A stretch of DNA of 64,000 nucleotides from assembly GCA_964602715.1 (NCBI GenBank), contig CAZRSB010000003.1:5783-69782 (forward strand). Direction: 5' to 3'. A model generated the notes under the pieces. It was given only the letters and a program-made list of their open reading frames with translations. It made no database searches and was not told the origin of the DNA. Source of the stretch: an uncultured Thermoplasmata archaeon. GTDB lineage: Archaea; Thermoplasmatota; Thermoplasmata; Halarchaeoplasmatales; Halarchaeoplasmataceae. The position numbers and the translations under genes were made by a program. Shown one piece after another: positions 6,130 through 62,309 of this stretch (positions within the stretch are counted from its first letter, which is position 1; each line of letters begins with the position of its first letter).

Positions 6130-7080
6130 ATGAAAAAATTGGAAAAGTATCTGAGAACCGATACACACCAAATGAAATTAAGTGGCTATGCCTACGACTC
6201 GGTGGGAGAGTTGATAGAAAATAAAAATATTTCGAGAGGGATATACGAAGGTTGGAAAAAAACGGGGTTGATCTCTGAACCTGAAGATTTCAAAGAAGAG
6301 GATGTTGGAATAACAAAATTGGAGACCGAGATTGATTTTCTCGCCACTTTGTCCAACTCAGACTTGAGTTGGAAGAATATAAGTGAATTTCTTTCTGAAC
6401 TCTCTAAGCCTTACCATTATGAGATTACTGGCTTATTTTATGATATAGGTAATGATAGGTTCATAGTCAAAGAAAATCTCTTGGAGGAAGAGTTGAAAAA
6501 AACTCGTGTTAGAGAATTTGAGGAGATTAATTTTGAAGACTTTTTACGCAAAAAAGAAACGAATTATGAGGATTTAAAAAAGTTAGAAACAATTGGCTTC
6601 CTCACAGATTTGCCCTCGAAGGATACAATCTTATCACTAGATGAACACAAAGAGGTCGATTTTCTCTGTGATTTATTGGAGAGCGGTTTAACTTGGGATA
6701 AAGTGAACACTCTTCTTGATAGGCTTGAGAAACCATACCAATACGATTCTAATGAACTATTATATAAGATTGAAAATGGAGAGTTCCTCACTAAAGGTGA
6801 TGTAATAGTAAATGAAATTAAAGACCAAATTATTTCTGAGGAGTACCTAAAAGAAAGAATAATGGATGAGCATGAGACTGAGATTATAGAAAGCACACTA
6901 CATAGTCTTCAGGAGAATCTCCAAGATTCAGAATTAGATTTAGTAGAAGACCAGCTAACTGAGGTTGGGGAAAAAATTATCTTTAGATGTAGGGAAATTC
7001 TAAATGAAAATATAGAGGAGATCTACGAAGAAAGAACCAAGGAGTTTGAATTAAGAAAGGATAGAAAGAGAGGTTTTTAA
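6130..7080 (+). CDS. hypothetical protein with internal ~55-aa tandem duplication
   Basis: Track ORF starts at 6082. ATG 6130 (MKKLEKY) follows an AGGTGA RBS. Two repeats: DFLATLSNSDLSWKNISEFLSELSKPYHYEITGLFYDIGNDRF and DFLCDLLESGLTWDKVNTLLDRLEKPYQYDSNELLYKIENGEF. Confidence 0.55.
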   Translation: MKKLEKYLRTDTHQMKLSGYAYDSVGELIENKNISRGIYEGWKKTGLISEPEDFKEEDVGITKLETEIDFLATLSNSDLSWKNISEFLSELSKPYHYEITGLFYDIGNDRFIVKENLLEEELKKTRVREFEEINFEDFLRKKETNYEDLKKLETIGFLTDLPSKDTILSLDEHKEVDFLCDLLESGLTWDKVNTLLDRLEKPYQYDSNELLYKIENGEFLTKGDVIVNEIKDQIISEEYLKERIMDEHETEIIESTLHSLQENLQDSELDLVEDQLTEVGEKIIFRCREILNENIEEIYEERTKEFELRKDRKRGF

Positions 7081-51704: not shown

Positions 51705-54700
51705 CTAGTCTTCCTCATCCTCAGAAGGTTTCTTAACGACCCTCTTTTTCACTTTTTTCCTTTTCTTCGGTTTTTTCTTCGTTGTTTCTGGAGATTCGTC
51801 GATCGTCTCTTTCTTATCTTGTTCCTCTTGTTTCTCACTAACATCTTTACTTTTTTCGCTTTCTGTTACTTCTAGGTCTTCATCCTCTAATGATGATATC
51901 TCTTCATCTATATCTAATTCCTCCTCGATCTCTGCGATCTCCTGTAAATCTTCTTCAGCTGCTTCTGACATCTCTTCATCCACCTCCTCGTCTTCTTGTT
52001 CCATCTCAATTTCTCCAAATTCGATAAGACTTTCACCACACTTCTGACAAACAGCCGCATCTACATTATTCAATGTTCCACATTCAGGACATTCTTTACT
52101 GCCCTCTCTCCTCTGTTTTTCTTTTCTTTCTAACCATTCGTCAAAAGTAACAAATGACGGTTGTTCTTTCCACCATTCCATGAACTCTTCTCTAGTTAGT
52201 TCAGTATCTAATTCCTCTTCTGCTCTTCGTTTTTGTTTATCCACAAACTTCCTAAATTGTTTTCTCATTCGCTCAGTGTAATCTTCGACCTCTTCCCCAG
52301 TTTTTACGAATTGGGCATCACACTCTGGACATGTATCAGCATCGGCTGGAATCCATTCTTCACATTCACTACATTTAACGGTATTCAAGTCGAACTCAAC
52401 ACCGCATTTTGGACAATTATTAGCATCAGCTGAGATCGTAGAACCGCAATTACCGCACTCGACCATCTCCCTTTCTCGGAAGAATTTAAAGTAAGCTACA
52501 GTTGATCCTGAACCACCTGCTGCTATTATCACAATAACCAAAAGTACCCACCAAGGCATACCTAGTATCTCCAATGTTTCAGTTTGTGCATTGAATGCCT
52601 CTGAGAAAGTATAATCAGGGCTAGCTTCTGTATGAGCTTGGATAATGATATCATATTCACCTTCCTCTTCAGGTATCTCAATATCCACGGAGAAATCACC
52701 ATTACTATCGGTATCAGTCATCTCGCTTACTTCAGAATCGCCTATTTTCAAAGTGATTGTGACTCCTGTATTAACCAATGGTCTACCATCACCTCTCTCT
52801 AATGTCCCTTCAAAAGTGTATGTGCCTCCAGTGTAAGGGCTTTCAGGGAAGTTCTCATTCGTTATTACAATTTCCTGTATCTCATCTATATCAAGCGACC
52901 ATGAAGTAGAATTGTATAGATATTCCTCTTCTGCCGCTGGGCCGATATACATATTTAAGGTTACTAACTGATCTCCTTGCCCAAACTCAACTGTCCACTC
53001 ATCTTCGATCTCTACAGTATCCTCTTGTTCCAAAACAACTTCATCGTATTCATCCCCTAGGAGTTCATTAGAAGTTTCGTCAGGATATTCGATGTTGATG
53101 TAGGCGGCACCCAGATCTAGAGCAGTTTCATTTGTATTCTGAACTGTTCCACTAAATCGAATCTCACCTTTTTCAATTAGGCTAGTATCCATATCATTAG
53201 GGTAAAATGACTCCCACTCGCCATTTTCTTTAACTTCCCAGGATTCTTCGACCAGAACCAGGTTAGGAGGAGACTTTAAATGCAGTTCTACTTGACCTTC
53301 TCTTACGTTGTTTTGTAGATACTTGTCCCTTTCATTCACGGTTTCTCCATCTATTTCTACCTGAACATCCTCTTTTATCTCAGCTATAATGATGTAATCA
53401 TCCGGAACAGCATCTGAGGTATCCCACTGGAATGTGATCTCAGTATTATGTTCTTCATAACCATCTCTTACATCAAGCGTCTCATCAAAGGTAAGATTGC
53501 CAATCCGTGTTTTTTCTGGTTCAGCAACTCCTACTTCTTGTTTATAATATTCAATCTCAAAATTGGTCACCCTCAGATCACCTTCATTTACTATAGTTGA
53601 GGTGATTACAACAGGGTCTCCTTTAGTTCTTTCCTCTGGGTAATCGATCTCTCCTGTAATAGCTAAATCAACATGTCGCTCAATATTTATCTCATCTGTT
53701 ATACTCAATATGTCTTCGTCTTCTTCCTCCTGATAAGGGTCTAGATCAACTTCTACTCTTATATCTCTAGCTTCTTCAATAGCTCCTAAGTAATGTGTCA
53801 GCATCTCGGCCTCCCAAATCATAGATAAGGTCTCCTCATCTCCGCTCTCTATTCCTTCTTCTAGATTCTCTGAACCAATCTCTATATATTCTCCGTCCTC
53901 ATCTTCAACAAGGAAATCAGCGTTAACTTCTTCTGAAACCCATCCTCCTATGTTCTCAATCGTCGTTTTTATTTCCACTTCCTCACCCACTCTAATGGGG
54001 TCTTCAGAGAATTCAATCGCTTCAATAGTTAATTGAGGTCTTTCAAGTATTGAAAATGATTTGGTCATTCTATCTTCTGTGCCCTCTACATTTTGCTCTC
54101 CATTTTCTACAGATATATCAACATATAATTCATAATCACCAGATTCAACTTCGTCAGTACTCCATTGAATATCTTCAAATGGTTTTACTTGGTCGGGTTC
54201 AAGATAAATACTGTCATTATTATAAATTGAGGATTCTTCTCCTTCAATCCCGATCTCAACTTCAGCACCATATATATCGTCTGCACCAGAATTCTGGACT
54301 TCTGCAGAAAAGGTAATATCCTTACCATCCATAACCTCTCCTTCACGGAAGAAATTGTCCTCATGGAAATTTATCGCATCAACTTCAAGACCCGCTCTTC
54401 TCTTTACAGTCAGATCGGTTGTTTGATAGAGGTTACCTTCTTTACTGTCTAGATCTAACGTCTCTTGGTCTATACTTGCGGTTATCTCTCTTACTTCAGT
54501 AAGATCTTCTACATCCTCACTCATCTCTGCGGTCCAGGTGAAATCAATAGGTTGTGTTTCTATGCCTGGTTCAATGTCAGCAGTATGGATAGATTCCTCA
54601 TCATCTAAAATGAACTCAACTGTTGTAGCTTCGGATGGCCATTCTCCTAAGTTTTCTATATCAGCGGATATCTGTACATTTTCTCCGATATAGTTATCCT

Positions 54701-57440
54701 CTATATCATATAATGTGAGAGAAAGTTCAGGTTTGCTCAATACAGTTATTTCTTCTTCTAGTCTACTTTCAGTTCCTTCTAATTCAACGCTAACTGTATA
54801 ATCACCTAAATCTCCAGGTTCCCATTCAAGTGGATCCGTCTCGTTATACGAATAGGGAGGTCCTGAAATACTTTCTTGCAGTGCTGCCATATCTCCCCCT
54901 GGAGCCCCTTCTATATCAACCTTGAACTCTTCGTGTTCCACCATTACTCCGTCTTTATCAGTTATGTTTATCCAAACTGACAAATCATCTATACCAAACT
55001 CGCCTTCGTTGATTATCCCTGCATAGACATTTACCTTTTCATCTACTAAAAGTTGCCGATTCTCATTCATCCTAATTTCATATTCTTCAGCATCGATATG
55101 TATCTGATCAACTGAAAGATCAGGACCTTCAGTCACAGTTATATTGATTTCATCTATGTTATTCTCACGACACTCTTCTAAGATCTCTTGTTCCGGGTCT
55201 ATTTCAGCAGTTAAAGTATAATCACCTCTACCTACCTCCTCTTCTCCTGGCCACTCAACATATAAAGTCTCATTTTCACCAGGCCCAAGGTCGGACCAAT
55301 CTTTTTCCTCTACAAATTTAATCTTTTCCTCATCTTCTCGTTGACGGTAATAAAAAGCCAGATCGATATTTTTTGCTTCTGACTCTCCAATATTTTTAAC
55401 GGTAAGACCTAATTCTCCCGACTCATCTTCAGGCAGCCTATGTGTCTCTTCACCTTCATATCTAAAGCTCAGATCTTCAACTTCGAGATCCGGTAGGGGA
55501 ACGGGGATGACCACATTGGTAATTTGCGGGTTTTCCATGGTAGGGAAATCTTCAAGATGATCTATCTTTACTTCTTCCTCGACTGAAATGTCATCATCAG
55601 TATAATTTACATAAAGATCATAATTACCAACGAATTTGCTGTTGGGCCAATCTTCAGGATAATTCAACCTGTCGCTCGCTAAAAACATAGTTGTGTTGCC
55701 GTCATCTCCACTCACGTACATTTCTTCGTCGGGGTCGTAATAGCCATATCCTGTTTCATTCAGAAAATCCCAAGCAGCCTGATTATGGGGTTCTGTAAGA
55801 TCATTGGCAAAGTTTATCTCCTCCTCTAAATCATCTTCTATTGCGGGTTTTGGATCAAGTCTGACTCCAGGTAGACCTATACCTCCTTCTGTTGTCACTT
55901 GTAACTCCACTTGTCTGTAAATCCAAGTCTTGTTGTGCTCTTCCTCAGTATTCAAAATCCAAGGATCAACATCATAATTATGATCGCTCACATTATCGTC
56001 AGCTATCTCTAAACCATAGCTCCTAAATTCGCTACCCCCGTACAATCTTATCGTTCTATGGTCCATGTTGGCGTTGTGTAGATATGTTTCTTTACAAGTA
56101 TCTACGTCGTTACCTCTTGGATCAACGTCGCTTTTTTCTATATCTACATCTATAAAACTGTCTATAGCCGTAAATATAGAATTTTCTACATGGATATCAT
56201 TATCATAGGAAGAAACAAGTCTCAGCTCAGTTACGTTTACATAATTATCGCCATCTATGTCATGTCCCTCATGATGTAAACTCAGATCCAGATCAAATAA
56301 CCATCTCCATTGGTCTCCGCGCTCTTCCTCGTAAAATCTACTCAAATCCATTTCCCATATATTTAGGAATTTTTCCCCTAGTGTTTCCGTTTCATCCAAT
56401 TGTATCGCTTCTTCGATCCACCCTTCTTCCGGACTTGAATAATTCAGATAAGCTTCACCATCATAGTCCTCAGAAGTATCATATTCTACCTCTATATATA
56501 AAGAGCTGATCAAATCTACCGGGTTTATATAGGGATATTCTTCTAGATATTCATGTGGAACCATAGGGTTTGAAAGGAACCATTCTCCTATTTCAAGCTC
56601 ATCAATACCTATATCATTATCGTTATCTTGGAGTTCTTCAATTGGCTCACCATCATCGTCCAGCGGGTACCAGGTCATCTCATCGGTGTTATACTCTGTA
56701 TCTCCTTCTGGAAAGTTATCATTCGTATAATAATCATTTATCTCTGATCTTTCCATATATACTTCTGAATTTTGAACAAATAACCTTGGACCGTCATTAT
56801 TGTCCTCTTGAGCTTGAGTTTCTAAATCTCCATCCCACAGATAATCATAATTAGGTATCTCGTCTTCATCTAGAGCTTCGAATCGTGATCCGATCATATC
56901 AAATTCAGAATCTTGGATGTGCACAAATCCAGGAAAAGAGAAGGAGGAATCATTATTTAAAGACAAAAATGATCCATCTTTAATGGTGACATCTGTTTTT
57001 AAAAACGGATGGGACCAACCTTCCTCTTCAGAATCAATCCAGGTCGTGATCGTACTGTTATCAAGGTCAAGAGTTCCAGAATGCACAGTTATATTGTACT
57101 GGTTTTCTGTATCTTGCCTTAAAGTGATCGTCGAATTTATCATTATTAGAGTACCTTCTTCTTCGATTATCACATCTCCATCTACCAAAAGGTCCCTGTC
57201 TTCTTCGATCCGGGTTTCTCCTTCTTCGATGATGAGATCCCCCTCGATATAATCATACCCCATCATACCGACTCCCTTTGGCACTGCTCGTTCAGTTGAA
57301 AGACTTGCACTCCCTACCGCTGATCCTATAGTCGGAGCAACTAGTCCCAAAATTAAAGCAGTCGCGATAATCATGCTCAACATTTTATGTATAGCATCTT
57401 TTTCATCAATCATGGTTTTCCACCGGGATAGTAAATCCAA
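51705..57440 (-). CDS. giant acidic surface protein (1911 aa): signal peptide, CARDB-like repeats, C-terminal TM, cytoplasmic triple zinc-ribbon tail
   Basis: N-terminal hydrophobic segment. Repeated DLSV...VKNIGESEAKN-like CARDB motifs. TM WWVLLVIVIIAAGG near residue 1640. Tail has three CxxC-N12-CxxC zinc ribbons followed by an acidic/K-rich tail. Confidence 0.7.
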   Translation of the reverse strand: MDLLSRWKTMIDEKDAIHKMLSMIIATALILGLVAPTIGSAVGSASLSTERAVPKGVGMMGYDYIEGDLIIEEGETRIEEDRDLLVDGDVIIEEEGTLIMINSTITLRQDTENQYNITVHSGTLDLDNSTITTWIDSEEEGWSHPFLKTDVTIKDGSFLSLNNDSSFSFPGFVHIQDSEFDMIGSRFEALDEDEIPNYDYLWDGDLETQAQEDNNDGPRLFVQNSEVYMERSEINDYYTNDNFPEGDTEYNTDEMTWYPLDDDGEPIEELQDNDNDIGIDELEIGEWFLSNPMVPHEYLEEYPYINPVDLISSLYIEVEYDTSEDYDGEAYLNYSSPEEGWIEEAIQLDETETLGEKFLNIWEMDLSRFYEEERGDQWRWLFDLDLSLHHEGHDIDGDNYVNVTELRLVSSYDNDIHVENSIFTAIDSFIDVDIEKSDVDPRGNDVDTCKETYLHNANMDHRTIRLYGGSEFRSYGLEIADDNVSDHNYDVDPWILNTEEEHNKTWIYRQVELQVTTEGGIGLPGVRLDPKPAIEDDLEEEINFANDLTEPHNQAAWDFLNETGYGYYDPDEEMYVSGDDGNTTMFLASDRLNYPEDWPNSKFVGNYDLYVNYTDDDISVEEEVKIDHLEDFPTMENPQITNVVIPVPLPDLEVEDLSFRYEGEETHRLPEDESGELGLTVKNIGESEAKNIDLAFYYRQREDEEKIKFVEEKDWSDLGPGENETLYVEWPGEEEVGRGDYTLTAEIDPEQEILEECRENNIDEINITVTEGPDLSVDQIHIDAEEYEIRMNENRQLLVDEKVNVYAGIINEGEFGIDDLSVWINITDKDGVMVEHEEFKVDIEGAPGGDMAALQESISGPPYSYNETDPLEWEPGDLGDYTVSVELEGTESRLEEEITVLSKPELSLTLYDIEDNYIGENVQISADIENLGEWPSEATTVEFILDDEESIHTADIEPGIETQPIDFTWTAEMSEDVEDLTEVREITASIDQETLDLDSKEGNLYQTTDLTVKRRAGLEVDAINFHEDNFFREGEVMDGKDITFSAEVQNSGADDIYGAEVEIGIEGEESSIYNNDSIYLEPDQVKPFEDIQWSTDEVESGDYELYVDISVENGEQNVEGTEDRMTKSFSILERPQLTIEAIEFSEDPIRVGEEVEIKTTIENIGGWVSEEVNADFLVEDEDGEYIEIGSENLEEGIESGDEETLSMIWEAEMLTHYLGAIEEARDIRVEVDLDPYQEEEDEDILSITDEINIERHVDLAITGEIDYPEERTKGDPVVITSTIVNEGDLRVTNFEIEYYKQEVGVAEPEKTRIGNLTFDETLDVRDGYEEHNTEITFQWDTSDAVPDDYIIIAEIKEDVQVEIDGETVNERDKYLQNNVREGQVELHLKSPPNLVLVEESWEVKENGEWESFYPNDMDTSLIEKGEIRFSGTVQNTNETALDLGAAYINIEYPDETSNELLGDEYDEVVLEQEDTVEIEDEWTVEFGQGDQLVTLNMYIGPAAEEEYLYNSTSWSLDIDEIQEIVITNENFPESPYTGGTYTFEGTLERGDGRPLVNTGVTITLKIGDSEVSEMTDTDSNGDFSVDIEIPEEEGEYDIIIQAHTEASPDYTFSEAFNAQTETLEILGMPWWVLLVIVIIAAGGSGSTVAYFKFFREREMVECGNCGSTISADANNCPKCGVEFDLNTVKCSECEEWIPADADTCPECDAQFVKTGEEVEDYTERMRKQFRKFVDKQKRRAEEELDTELTREEFMEWWKEQPSFVTFDEWLERKEKQRREGSKECPECGTLNNVDAAVCQKCGESLIEFGEIEMEQEDEEVDEEMSEAAEEDLQEIAEIEEELDIDEEISSLEDEDLEVTESEKSKDVSEKQEEQDKKETIDESPETTKKKPKKRKKVKKRVVKKPSEDEED

Positions 57441-58685: not shown

Positions 58686-61600
58686 ATGAGAGAATTAGTA
58701 GATGCTTTTTTCGGAGAATTTAGCATCGTAGGACATCATATTGAATCGTACAACGATTTTATACCAACAATTGACAATCCCAATAGTAGAGCTCAAAAAA
58801 TAATCGACAATTTGAGAATCGGTTTCGATGAAGGTGGTTGGGGAAAAATTAAACTCGATCCAGAAAAAGTTAACGGACAAGATATCCAGATAAGAGTCGG
58901 TAGAAAAAGAGGAGAAGATGGTAGGATCAAGCAAAATTCTGAACCTACTATACGTGTAAGAAAACCAACTATACGAGAGGCTAGCGGCTCTGAGCACAAG
59001 TTGACTCCTCACGAGGCGCGACTTAGAGATCTCTATTATGATGCAGAACTGGAGATGCAGTTTACTATAATAAGGGAAGGCATAGAAGAGGAGCCACAAT
59101 GGCTGTCTGTTGGTCGTTTACCTGTGATGATCGGATCGAAGATATGTAATCTTAATGAAAACAATATAGATAGTACAGTAGAAGAAGTTCTCAATAAGGA
59201 CATAGAGAGTCCTGATTATATTGAAAAATCCTACGAAGACAAGCTTGTCGATTTGGGAGAAGATCCTGTAGATCCTCAAGGTTATTTTATAATCGGAGGA
59301 ACAGAGAGAAACTTGATGGCTGTAGAAGATATGGCTACCAATAGAGTGATGTGTGAAATAAAAGAAAAATACGGAAGAGAACATGAAGTTGCTAAGATAT
59401 TCTCACAAAGGCATGGATTTAGAGCACTAACAGTGATGGAGAAAAAGAAAGACGGAATGATAGCCGTTTCTGTCCCCTCAGCCCGGGGAGACATTCCTCT
59501 TGTGATATTGATGAAGGCACTGGGCATGGATGAAGATGAGGAAATATACAACTCTATAGTTACAGATCCAGAGATGGCAAGTTTGATTTTCGCTAATATC
59601 GAGATGTGCCAAGATGAGGATGAATATTCACCAGATGGAGTGTACGATCAGGAGGACGCACTAGCTTATCTTGAGAGGAAATTTGCGACAGGACAAGCGG
59701 AAGAGTACAGAAGAAGGAAAATAGAATCCATCTTAGATAGGTCATTGCTTCCACATCTAGGCGATAAGAAAGAAAATAGGATGAAAAAGGCAGTATTCTT
59801 AGGAAGGATGGCAAGAGCTATACTCGAATTGAACATGGGTGAAAGAGAAGCTGACGATAAGGATCACTATGCTAACAAAAGATTGAAACTAGCAGGTGAT
59901 CTCATGTCTGATCTTTTTAGAGTTTCTGTAGTCAATTTACTCAAGGATTTAAAGTATCAACTTGAAAGAAACTTTAGAAAAAAAGGAGATATAAGGATCA
60001 AATCCTCTATACGGCCGGACCTACTGAGCAATAAATTACAGCACTCGATGGCCACTGGGAACTGGGTTGGAGGTAGAACTGGTATATCTCAGTTGCTAGA
60101 TAGAACTTCAAATATGGCTACGATAAGTCACCTAAGAAGGGTCAAATCACCGTTATCTAGAAGCCAGCCTCACTTTGATGCTCGAGAACTACATCCTACT
60201 CATTGGGGTCGCTTATGTCCAAACGAAACTCCTGAAGGTCAGAATTGTGGGTTAGTCAAAACTTCTGCCTTGATGGTTAATGTTTCAAAAGGCTCTGAGC
60301 CTATGGAAGTAAGATGGAACCTGCATGAATTAGGGCTTAAAGATATAGGATCTGAAACCGATGCAACAACAAAAGTATATCTTAATGGAGATCTGATTGG
60401 TTTAGTAGAACAGCCAGAAAATTTTGTGGAAAAGATCAAGGAGGAAAGAAGAACAGGAGAACTATCTGATCAGGTGAATATTAAATTCGAGCAAAAGATG
60501 GACGAAGTTATAGTCAATTGTGATGAGGGCCGGGTTCGAAGACCTCTTTTGGCACTCGAAGATGGGAAACTAAAGTTAACTGCTGAAGTTGTCGAAGAGC
60601 TCCTTGATGATAAAAGAGAGATTAAATCCCTCTTTGAAGAAGGCTATATGGAATGGATCGATACTGAAGAAGAAGAAAATCTATACGTAGCTTTATTCCC
60701 CTTCAATATTCCAGAGATGTGTGAAAATTGTAACTCAGCCATCTCCGAGGCAGATATTAAGTGGATCAATATGGGTAAGGGGGAAGATAAGGCTAAACTA
60801 AAATGCAAGGACTGCGGAGAGATAATGGAAGAAGAGATAAAATTAGAAGAAGAACACACCCATATGGAAGTTGATCCATTGCTGATCTTGGGAGCATCAA
60901 CAGGTCTAGTTCCATTTGCAGAACACAATGCAGCTCCCCGGTGTTCGATGGGAGCCAACATGATGAAACAAGCTCTTGGACTAAATGCTTCAAATTACAG
61001 ATATAGACCTGATACTCGAGAACACCTTTTGCACTACCCACAACTCTCATTGATTCAAACAAAAACGATGGAATATGTTAACTACAATAAAAGACCAGCT
61101 GGTCAAAACTTTATCGTGGCTGTTATGCCCTATCATGGTTACAATATGGAAGATGCCTTAATTATGAGTCGAGCTTCTATTGATAGAGCACTTGCAAGAT
61201 CCACATTCTTCCGAACATATACAACAGAGGAAAGAAAATATCCTGGTGGTCAAGAAGACCAATTTGAAATTCCTGATCCAGACGTTAGAGGAGCAAGGAG
61301 TGATCAGCAATATAGTAAACTGGATACTGATGGAATGATAAATCCCGAAACACAAGTCGATGGAGGTGAAGTGATCGTAGGGAAGACTTCACCACCAAGA
61401 TTTTTAGAGGAAGATACAGACTTGATGGCACCTCAAAAAAGAAGAGAAACTTCAGAGACGATGAGACCTAGAGAAAAGGGATGGGTAGATTCTGTGATGT
61501 TGACTGAATCTGAAGACGGGAGTAGGATAGTCAAAACAAAGATAAGAGATCAGAGGATACCTGAGCTAGGTGATAAATTTACCTCAAGGCACGGTCAGAA

Positions 61601-62309
61601 AGGAGTGATCGGAAAATTGGTAGAGCCAGAGGATCTTCCATTCACTGAGGAAGGTGTGGTACCAGACTTGATCGCTAATCCTCATGCGATTCCATCTAGA
61701 ATGACTGTTGCCCATATGCTTGAAATGCTTGGGGGAAAAGTAGCTTCTCTAAAAGGACGAACTATCGATGGCACGCCTTTCAGCGGTGAGAGCGAAGAGG
61801 CTCTCAAGGAAGCATTAAAAGATTCAGGCTTCAAATCAAATGGAACCGAAATATTATACGATGGTAAGAGCGGAAAGATGATGGAAGCTGAAATTTATGT
61901 TGGCGTTATATATTATCAAAAATTACATCACATGGTAGCCGGAAAACTCCACAGCAGATCACGAGGTCCAGTACAGATACTGACAAGACAGCCAACTGAA
62001 GGACGTTCTCGAAAAGGTGGTTTAAGATTTGGTGAGATGGAAAGAAATACGCTTATTGGTCATGGTACCGCAATGGTGATCAAAGATAGACTTTTGGATC
62101 AGTCCGATGGAACTAAAGAGTTTGTTTGTGGAAATGAAGAATGTGGTCATCTAGCCATCTTAGATAGTAATGGTGAACTACGATGTCCTGTATGTGATGA
62201 AAAATCTGATGTCCATCAGATTCAGACTAGTTTTGCATTTAAACTTCTGATGGATGAATTAAGATCACTTGGAGTAACCATGAGATTGAATGTGGAGGAT
62301 CAACGATGA
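58686..62309 (+). CDS. rpoB: DNA-directed RNA polymerase subunit B (unsplit)
   Basis: 1207 aa. Conserved Rpb2/RpoB blocks and C-terminal zinc ribbon. Has an extra internal Cys4 insertion. Confidence 0.95.
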   Translation: MRELVDAFFGEFSIVGHHIESYNDFIPTIDNPNSRAQKIIDNLRIGFDEGGWGKIKLDPEKVNGQDIQIRVGRKRGEDGRIKQNSEPTIRVRKPTIREASGSEHKLTPHEARLRDLYYDAELEMQFTIIREGIEEEPQWLSVGRLPVMIGSKICNLNENNIDSTVEEVLNKDIESPDYIEKSYEDKLVDLGEDPVDPQGYFIIGGTERNLMAVEDMATNRVMCEIKEKYGREHEVAKIFSQRHGFRALTVMEKKKDGMIAVSVPSARGDIPLVILMKALGMDEDEEIYNSIVTDPEMASLIFANIEMCQDEDEYSPDGVYDQEDALAYLERKFATGQAEEYRRRKIESILDRSLLPHLGDKKENRMKKAVFLGRMARAILELNMGEREADDKDHYANKRLKLAGDLMSDLFRVSVVNLLKDLKYQLERNFRKKGDIRIKSSIRPDLLSNKLQHSMATGNWVGGRTGISQLLDRTSNMATISHLRRVKSPLSRSQPHFDARELHPTHWGRLCPNETPEGQNCGLVKTSALMVNVSKGSEPMEVRWNLHELGLKDIGSETDATTKVYLNGDLIGLVEQPENFVEKIKEERRTGELSDQVNIKFEQKMDEVIVNCDEGRVRRPLLALEDGKLKLTAEVVEELLDDKREIKSLFEEGYMEWIDTEEEENLYVALFPFNIPEMCENCNSAISEADIKWINMGKGEDKAKLKCKDCGEIMEEEIKLEEEHTHMEVDPLLILGASTGLVPFAEHNAAPRCSMGANMMKQALGLNASNYRYRPDTREHLLHYPQLSLIQTKTMEYVNYNKRPAGQNFIVAVMPYHGYNMEDALIMSRASIDRALARSTFFRTYTTEERKYPGGQEDQFEIPDPDVRGARSDQQYSKLDTDGMINPETQVDGGEVIVGKTSPPRFLEEDTDLMAPQKRRETSETMRPREKGWVDSVMLTESEDGSRIVKTKIRDQRIPELGDKFTSRHGQKGVIGKLVEPEDLPFTEEGVVPDLIANPHAIPSRMTVAHMLEMLGGKVASLKGRTIDGTPFSGESEEALKEALKDSGFKSNGTEILYDGKSGKMMEAEIYVGVIYYQKLHHMVAGKLHSRSRGPVQILTRQPTEGRSRKGGLRFGEMERNTLIGHGTAMVIKDRLLDQSDGTKEFVCGNEECGHLAILDSNGELRCPVCDEKSDVHQIQTSFAFKLLMDELRSLGVTMRLNVEDQR

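Follow-up and report, generated by a model that had tools for sequence, protein, structure and literature searches.

An insertion with two CxxC pairs in Thermoplasmata Rpo2

The RNA polymerase subunit Rpo2 (RpoB) encoded in a 64,000-nucleotide stretch of contig CAZRSB010000003.1 from an uncultured Thermoplasmata archaeon (assembly GCA_964602715.1; the whole stretch is called the window here) carries a 44-residue insertion with four cysteines, which recurs throughout the Thermoplasmata sampled and is absent from the archaeal Rpo2 structures compared. We consider it probable that this segment is a zinc ribbon already present in the Thermoplasmata ancestor, placed at the tip of an insertion-tolerant hairpin, and that it acts as a surface brace or docking knob and not in catalysis. 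The open reading frame (ORF) of 1207 residues contains Pfam Rpb2 domains 1 to 7, ordered along one polypeptide, each above the cut-off in a Pfam scan (PF04563, PF04561, PF04565, PF04566, PF04567, PF00562 and PF04560), and phmmer matches it to the archaeal Rpo2 chains in the PDB with E = 0 and 1017-1206 bits. The nearest database homologues, 72-86% identical, come from metagenome-assembled genomes (MAGs) with the annotation Thermoplasmata or 'Candidatus Natronoplasma'. Taken together with the acidic proteome of the window and its G+C content of ~40%, these homologues identify the gene as the unsplit rpoB of a halophilic member of the Thermoplasmata.

The insertion (PEMCENC...EEEIK) is flanked by EEEENLYVALFPFNI and LEEEHTHME, and its cysteines C679, C682, C707 and C710, with codons at nt 60720, 60729, 60804 and 60813, form the motif CxxC-N24-CxxC. 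A preliminary description of this DNA had reported an extra Cys4 segment of ~45 residues between the EEEE block and EEHTH, with a CxxC-N22-CxxC spacing. The peptide quoted there is present at residues 676-719, whereas the spacing has to be corrected, as 24 residues are counted from C682 to C707. The length is close to the earlier figure, with 44 residues in RpoB itself and slightly fewer when the comparison is made with Pyrococcus furiosus Rpo2. In the phmmer alignment with that subunit, query residues 184-677 pair with 139-632 and residues 720-1205 with 630-1115, which leaves ~42 query residues without a counterpart. By the same method, the insertion is missing from all five archaeal Rpo2 in the PDB, namely those of P. 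furiosus, Thermococcus kodakarensis and three Sulfolobales.

The segment interrupts the Pfam Rpb2_5 match, which covers residues 648-731. In Sulfolobus acidocaldarius the equivalent of the insertion point is residue ~632 (phmmer alignment), which falls inside beta-uD3 of that species (residues 569-711; PMC11515920, Table 1), so that the insertion site belongs to a universal domain of the subunit. Base composition shows no anomaly at the site. By a rough estimate, a Cys4 pattern would arise by chance in RpoB with a probability of about 5e-4, and a chance origin is excluded because the cysteines are conserved in more than 240 homologues.

Distribution among Thermoplasmata and other archaea

The best 120 homologues are 61-100% identical to the query and 1193-1211 residues long, with annotations that include Methanomassiliicoccales, Thermoplasmata and Natronoplasma among others, and the segment with all four cysteines occurs in every one of them that two motif scans could place. 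We also searched residues 540-830 with HMMER against 1.84 billion cluster representatives (50% identity) and examined the best 150. Five of these carry the Cys4 module (P0020, P0121, P0122, P0134 and the frameshifted P0141; P and L numbers are our handles for proteins and genome matches), P0121 being named in its source as Thermoplasmata and P0122 as Thermoplasmatales/I-plasma. The other ~145 of these 150 lack it, their linker being either very short (~0-10 residues) or a loop of eukaryotic type free of cysteine; they include Korarchaeota, Thorarchaeota, Ignicoccus, DPANN (Nanoarchaeota/Aenigmarchaeota, Anstonellales) and eukaryotic RPB2, as well as unnamed B' subunits. These sequences and the five PDB chains bear out the earlier remark that other archaeal RpoB proteins run almost directly from the first block to EEHTH, and the comparison with archaeal RpoB and B' and with Rpb2 shows a segment that is clade-restricted and not present in most archaeal RpoB.

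A hand-built degenerate DNA pattern encoding EEEE-N11-P-x2-C-x2-C-N10-W-x-N-x-G gave one match in the window and zero in shuffles. This pattern matched at least 120 species-representative genomes, and all of the matches listed (120/120) are rpoB genes of the Thermoplasmata lineage; among them, complete rpoB ORFs are unsplit and encode about 1195-1270 residues. The Cys4 is intact in 118 of the 120 matches listed, the exceptions being L008, which reaches a contig end, and L077, which has a frameshift. Record titles name Thermoplasma, Thermoplasmataceae, Cuniculiplasmataceae, Thermoplasmatales, Methanomassiliicoccales, Methanomethylophilaceae, Methanoplasma, the DHVE2 group, Halarchaeoplasma and Natronoplasma. 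Judged from these sequences, the insertion is the rule within the sampled Thermoplasmata and no peculiarity of the source genome, while being unusual across archaea overall; its earlier characterization as lineage-specific and unusual thus holds at the level of the archaea but not within this clade, where relatives share it (123 aligned proteins, in addition to the genome matches with an intact Cys4).

The same distribution bears on whether the segment might be an artefact or a selfish remnant, such as a mis-assembly, a degenerate intein, a mini-mobile element or a known domain that was wrongly aligned. All that speaks for such an origin is that some archaeal rpoB genes carry large insertions (P0137, P0139 and P0132), and we assign it next to no probability, given that the same in-frame segment recurs in over 240 assemblies and isolates that are independent of one another, with normal base composition and invariant key residues. 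An artefact was rejected on these distribution and conservation data. An intein or mini-intein was rejected on size, 41-48 residues against at least ~130, and on the lack of splice-junction motifs: the segment boundaries are P-x-x-C and ...K/L-x-x-E-H, with no junctions of the type N-terminal Cys/Ser and C-terminal His-Asn-(Cys/Ser/Thr).

As a rare-genomic-change marker the pattern performed well, since it gave Thermoplasmata rpoB with no false positives in the 120 matches listed. It also brought to light three genomes labelled bacterial, Faecalibacterium sp. CAG:74, Firmicutes bacterium CAG:194 and Bacteroides salyersiae (L029, L056 and L119), that contain a complete Methanomethylophilaceae-like RpoB with the ribbon; on this sequence evidence the contigs concerned are archaeal and were binned with bacteria by mistake. 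In L077, a Methanomassiliicoccaceae MAG, the frameshift lies inside the insertion (~6951-7060), removing the second CxxC and shortening the ORF to 235 residues; an assembly indel seems to us a likelier cause than a pseudogene.

Conservation of the segment

In the alignment of 123 full-length in-group proteins, six positions of the insertion are invariant (C679, C682, W693, G697, C707 and C710), and N695, S687, D690 and L705 are kept in 122, 120, 117 and 116 sequences, respectively. Mean pairwise identity is 50% for the insertion and 76% for the rest of the protein, a difference that, with the key residues fixed, fits a small scaffold stabilised by metal, with few constraints on its surface. 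The segment is 41 to 48 residues long, and the Cys-to-Cys spacer ranges from 22 to 25 in the protein set. A longer inter-knuckle loop, ~4 residues above the usual spacer, characterises a sub-lineage comprising L017, L059, L105 and L116 (e.g. WVNPGEGEDPDTPVILQCEHC). These four are Thermoplasmataceae, Thermoplasmatales and Thermoplasmatota MAGs, and they mark where the ribbon tolerates a change in length.

RpoB as a whole is poor in cysteine (15 in 1207 residues), and eight of these residues belong to the insertion motif and to the canonical C-terminal Cys4 of the clamp, so that the subunit has two Cys4 sites. Both lie in the same polypeptide; the clamp site is universal in archaea and eukaryotes, whereas that of the insertion is confined to one clade and sits in a different domain. 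Throughout this clade the B subunit would thus have a second Cys4 site that presumably binds metal.

Predicted fold

AlphaFold2 was run on a 62-residue segment with a 43-sequence alignment. The resulting model has a mean predicted local distance difference test score (pLDDT) of 80.5, with values of 85-93 over the ribbon, and contains three β-strands. In a 1200-residue model covering the whole subunit (predicted template modelling score, pTM, 0.79) the insertion reaches a pLDDT of about 89-93, and strands 691-693, 702-707 and 713-717 form a three-stranded antiparallel sheet with the knuckles at the hairpin turns; this model compares with P. furiosus, T. kodakarensis and S. acidocaldarius Rpo2 at template modelling (TM) scores of 0.75-0.85. 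The best Foldseek neighbours of the small model are RNase P Rpp21, Elf1/ELOF1 and Rpb9/A12, with probabilities up to 0.93 and E values that are non-significant (E>=0.19). A Pfam scan of five insertion sequences found no family common to them and returned scattered hits to dozens of zinc-ribbon and rubredoxin-like models, the weak ones including Zn_Ribbon_TF, Zn_ribbon_Elf1 and Zn_ribbon_RPB9. Two one-off matches just above the cut-off, C1_1 and HMBD, concern unrelated families and are not common to the sequences. As a fold class, the zinc ribbon proposed in the preliminary description is well supported by motif and prediction, while no homology to any specific zinc-ribbon family can be claimed from these comparisons, and metal binding by the insertion cysteines is putative.

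Rubredoxin and zinc-ribbon knuckles are indistinguishable by sequence, many members have a first knuckle of the CPxCG type, and some of the weak Pfam hits are to rubredoxin-like families. The Cys4 might accordingly bind iron in a rubredoxin-like manner or form reversible disulfides, so that the stability or activity of the polymerase would follow the redox state, and Fe-S clusters are used in Rpo3 of archaeal polymerases. We regard such a redox or iron module as very unlikely. Conservation of the motif is the same in Methanomassiliicoccales, which are strict anaerobes, in Thermoplasmatales, which include aerobic or facultative acidophiles, and in halophiles; the aromatic core pattern typical of rubredoxin is absent and the best fold matches are zinc proteins.

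Relation to the B''/B' gene split

The linker that holds the insertion had been taken for the place where B'' and B' are separated in methanogens and halophiles. The B' N-termini do not agree with this. They have the form M-x(3-10)-VY(V/I)NG and align to query residues ~560-566 (TKVYLNGDLIG; e.g. MALDKTKVYINGRLIG and MSQGREAKVYVNGSLVG), and EEHTH is found at B' residue ~114-120 in P0128, P0123, P0124, P0126, P0136, P0140, P0143, P0174 and P0192. The start of B' at ~560-566 thus puts the split ~115 residues upstream of the insertion, in another loop, between Pfam domains 3 and 4. Within a single B' polypeptide the short EEEE...HTH hairpin is uninterrupted (e.g. P0128), and at the true split junction the in-group proteins have only an ordinary short variable loop. 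From these alignments, the insertion is unrelated to the history of the B''/B' split.

It would be extremely unlikely, then, that the ribbon is a fusion scar, that is, a junction linker left over when Thermoplasmata re-fused a split B''/B' pair. Such an origin would accord with the position of the insertion in the middle third of the protein and with rpoB being unsplit in Thermoplasmata while many other euryarchaeal lineages have it split, yet it would require the junction to coincide with a hairpin that B' carries intact, far from where the two genes are separated and where the in-group loop is ordinary. We rejected it because the alignment of B' N-termini places the junction elsewhere.

Some B' subunits of split rpoB in our set have extensions (P0125, P0127, P0133 and P0126, by eye Methanobacteriales-like). 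Three of them, P0125, P0127 and P0133, are extended at the N-terminus by about 160-190 acidic residues of low complexity, and P0126 continues at its C-terminus for about 430 further residues with many CxxC motifs.

The host hairpin and comparable insertions

Additional residues in the EEEE...HTH hairpin were also found in eukaryote-type sequences. The fungal-type protein P0194 has 42 extra residues there, and S. cerevisiae Rpb2 621-806 aligns with it colinearly, which puts THCEIHP at about 739-745 and the loop at about residues 707-737. Cys-free hairpin insertions of 29-42 residues occur in P0160, P0194, P0159, P0191 and P0203, and mammalian RPB2 has a short, archaeal-like hairpin. On the strength of these sequences, the host hairpin is a recurrent insertion hot spot that tolerates added segments. 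The fungal loop (EEEE to THCEIHP) occupies the same hairpin as the Thermoplasmata ribbon, with the same insertion point and a similar length, but it is acidic, free of cysteine and independently arisen. In Pol II crystal structures, yeast Rpb2 residues 713-721 within this loop are disordered, and the surrounding 'external 2' region faces outward on Rpb2, close to the position of TFIIF-like modules. A hairpin that took insertions independently in fungi and Thermoplasmata may be useful for engineering tags into Rpo2/Rpb2.

Among known systems, the insertion resembles the bacterial beta/beta' insertions SI1/SI2/SI3 (BEAN, HABAS) in being a clade-restricted folding module in a surface loop of a universal domain, vertically inherited, usable as a clade marker and faster evolving than its host domain. 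Bacterial 'type 2' beta subunits likewise carry an insertion in beta-uD3, and insertions under 50 residues were excluded from the study that describes these domains (PMC11515920). BEAN consists of two helix-plus-two-strand brackets (CATH 3.90.105.10) and HABAS is a barrel-sandwich hybrid (CATH 2.40.50.100) (PMC11515920). The Thermoplasmata segment, compared with them by description, is neither: it has three short predicted strands, no core helix and half their size or less. It differs from them further in belonging to an archaeal enzyme, in its length (44 residues against about 90-190), in its zinc-ribbon fold and in its putative dependence on metal. The insertion is visible in any alignment and is of a known kind, a lineage-specific insertion module of known fold in a large polymerase subunit, and it raises the question of lineage-specific regulatory add-ons in archaeal polymerases, as in bacterial ones.

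With the zinc ribbons of the transcription apparatus (Rpb9/TFS, Rpo12/Rpb12, the TFB/TFIIB N-terminus, Elf1 and Spt4) and with Rpp21, the segment shares two CxxC pairs ~20-25 residues apart and, by prediction, a three-stranded sheet, but it is an internal insertion of Rpo2 and not a free subunit or factor.

Proposed origin and role

We propose that two CxxC knuckles would hold one metal ion and organize a small zinc ribbon with a three-stranded antiparallel sheet, inserted at the β-hairpin tip in the Rpb2_5 / 'external 2' region. The module would have been gained once, in an ancestor of the Thermoplasmata (Thermoplasmatales, Methanomassiliicoccales, DHVE2/Aciduliprofundum and the halophilic Halarchaeoplasma/Natronoplasma), and kept since by purifying selection along with three other clade insertions in Rpo2. 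As the host loop is peripheral and insertion-tolerant, the ribbon is most likely a rigid, metal-stabilised surface knob that would brace the outer face of Rpo2 or dock another protein, taking no catalytic part.

A more specific possibility, which we consider conceivable but unlikely, is a dedicated docking site on the outer face of Rpo2 for a transcription factor or extra subunit specific to Thermoplasmata. An analogy is offered by eukaryotic polymerases, where heterodimers of the TFIIF type bind at the lobe and the external side. In the transcription apparatus of archaea and eukaryotes, no adaptor between proteins, or between protein and nucleic acid, is more common than the zinc ribbon, and the nearest folds here are Elf1, Rpb9 and Rpp21. 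Conservation extends beyond the metal ligands to the invariant W-x-N-x-G and to the S/D positions, and the co-occurrence of three more clade insertions in Rpo2 would fit a composite surface. On the other hand, those conserved residues that are not cysteine (W, L, V/I, G and N) suffice for the core and turns of a zinc ribbon, and the remaining surface is free to vary, at the pairwise identity given above.

Several points weigh against the ancestral surface ribbon that we favour. Its surface exposure and its neighbours are deduced by homology and from Pol II structures, and metal binding from the cysteine pattern. The pLDDT is a local measure and gives no proof of how the ribbon docks, and the invariant Trp could form part of a site for a partner instead of the core of the fold. 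Finally, no Poseidoniales label appears among the at least 120 genomes matched, as far as listed, by what is a strict pattern, so that Marine Groups II/III fall outside this sample; nor do Poseidoniales appear among the names of 30 cluster representatives.

To our knowledge no Thermoplasmata RNA polymerase structure has been solved. We found no published description of the insertion, and an early mention, e.g. in Thermoplasma rpoB papers of the 1990s, is possible.

Other clade-specific insertions and gene neighbourhood

Three further insertions in RpoB are inherited together with the zinc ribbon (Table 1). The first confirms an N-terminal insertion suspected near residues 70-100: residues 79-90 are clade-specific, present in 8 in-group and absent from 12 out-group sequences. 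The second, at 157-183, is predicted to be helical with a pLDDT of about 85-90 in the full-subunit model, and the third is a small insertion in the lobe. Together, the clade insertions account for the length of Thermoplasmata RpoB, ~1195-1210 residues against ~1090-1135 in the other full-length archaeal sequences compared. The ribbon and residues 79-90, 157-183 and 311-318 might jointly make up a Thermoplasmata docking platform for a subunit or regulator, a counterpart of TFIIF-like modules, or a metal or redox control point; we hold this to be a quite improbable, speculative extension.

Table 1. Positions of rpoB, its insertions and related features in the window
Feature	Position (nt)	Strand	Basis
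rpoH (Rpo5), 88 aa	58400..58666	+	Immediately 5' of rpoB; sequence motifs and gene position only
rpoB (Rpo2), unsplit, 1207 aa	58686..62309	+	Seven Pfam Rpb2 domains and PDB Rpo2 matches
N-terminal insertion, residues 79-90, protrusion / Rpb2_1	58920..58955	+	Present in 8 in-group, absent from 12 full-length out-group sequences
Insertion, residues 157-183 (core 174-183), length variable between orders	59154..59234	+	Gap in T. kodakarensis alignment; in- versus out-group alignment
Small lobe insertion, residues 311-318	59616..59639	+	PDB and in-/out-group alignments; pLDDT about 72
Position homologous to the B''/B' split, residues ~560-563	60363..60374	+	B' N-termini align here; not the insertion site
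Cys4 insertion (predicted zinc ribbon), 44 residues, 676-719	60711..60842	+	Inside Pfam Rpb2_5 / beta-uD3
First putative zinc knuckle, C679-x2-C682	60720..60731	+	Both Cys in 123/123 aligned in-group proteins
W-x-N-x-G turn (W693, N695, G697)	60762..60776	+	W and G 123/123; N 122/123
Second putative zinc knuckle, C707-x2-C710	60804..60815	+	Both Cys 123/123; joins strands 702-707 and 713-717 (model)
Canonical C-terminal clamp Cys4 zinc site, C1148/C1153/C1167/C1170	62127..62195	+	Sequence; nearly invariant alignment columns

The gene order rpoH-rpoB-rpoA1 is present in the window, as is typical, and the N-terminus of rpoA1 begins at 62306, overlapping the rpoB stop codon. Elsewhere among the archaeal homologues, P0137 (1620 residues, Thorarchaeota) and P0139 (1705 residues) are far longer than usual, and P0132 (898 residues) has an endonuclease-like segment directly before the CPNETPEG motif, which suggests inteins or other large rpoB insertions in other archaeal lineages. 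Upstream in the window, on the minus strand (51705-57440), lies the gene for a predicted surface protein of 1911 residues that is extremely acidic and rich in repeats; a single membrane-spanning stretch lies towards its C-terminus, and the tail behind this contains several CxxC...CxxC motifs resembling double zinc ribbons and has a lysine-rich end.

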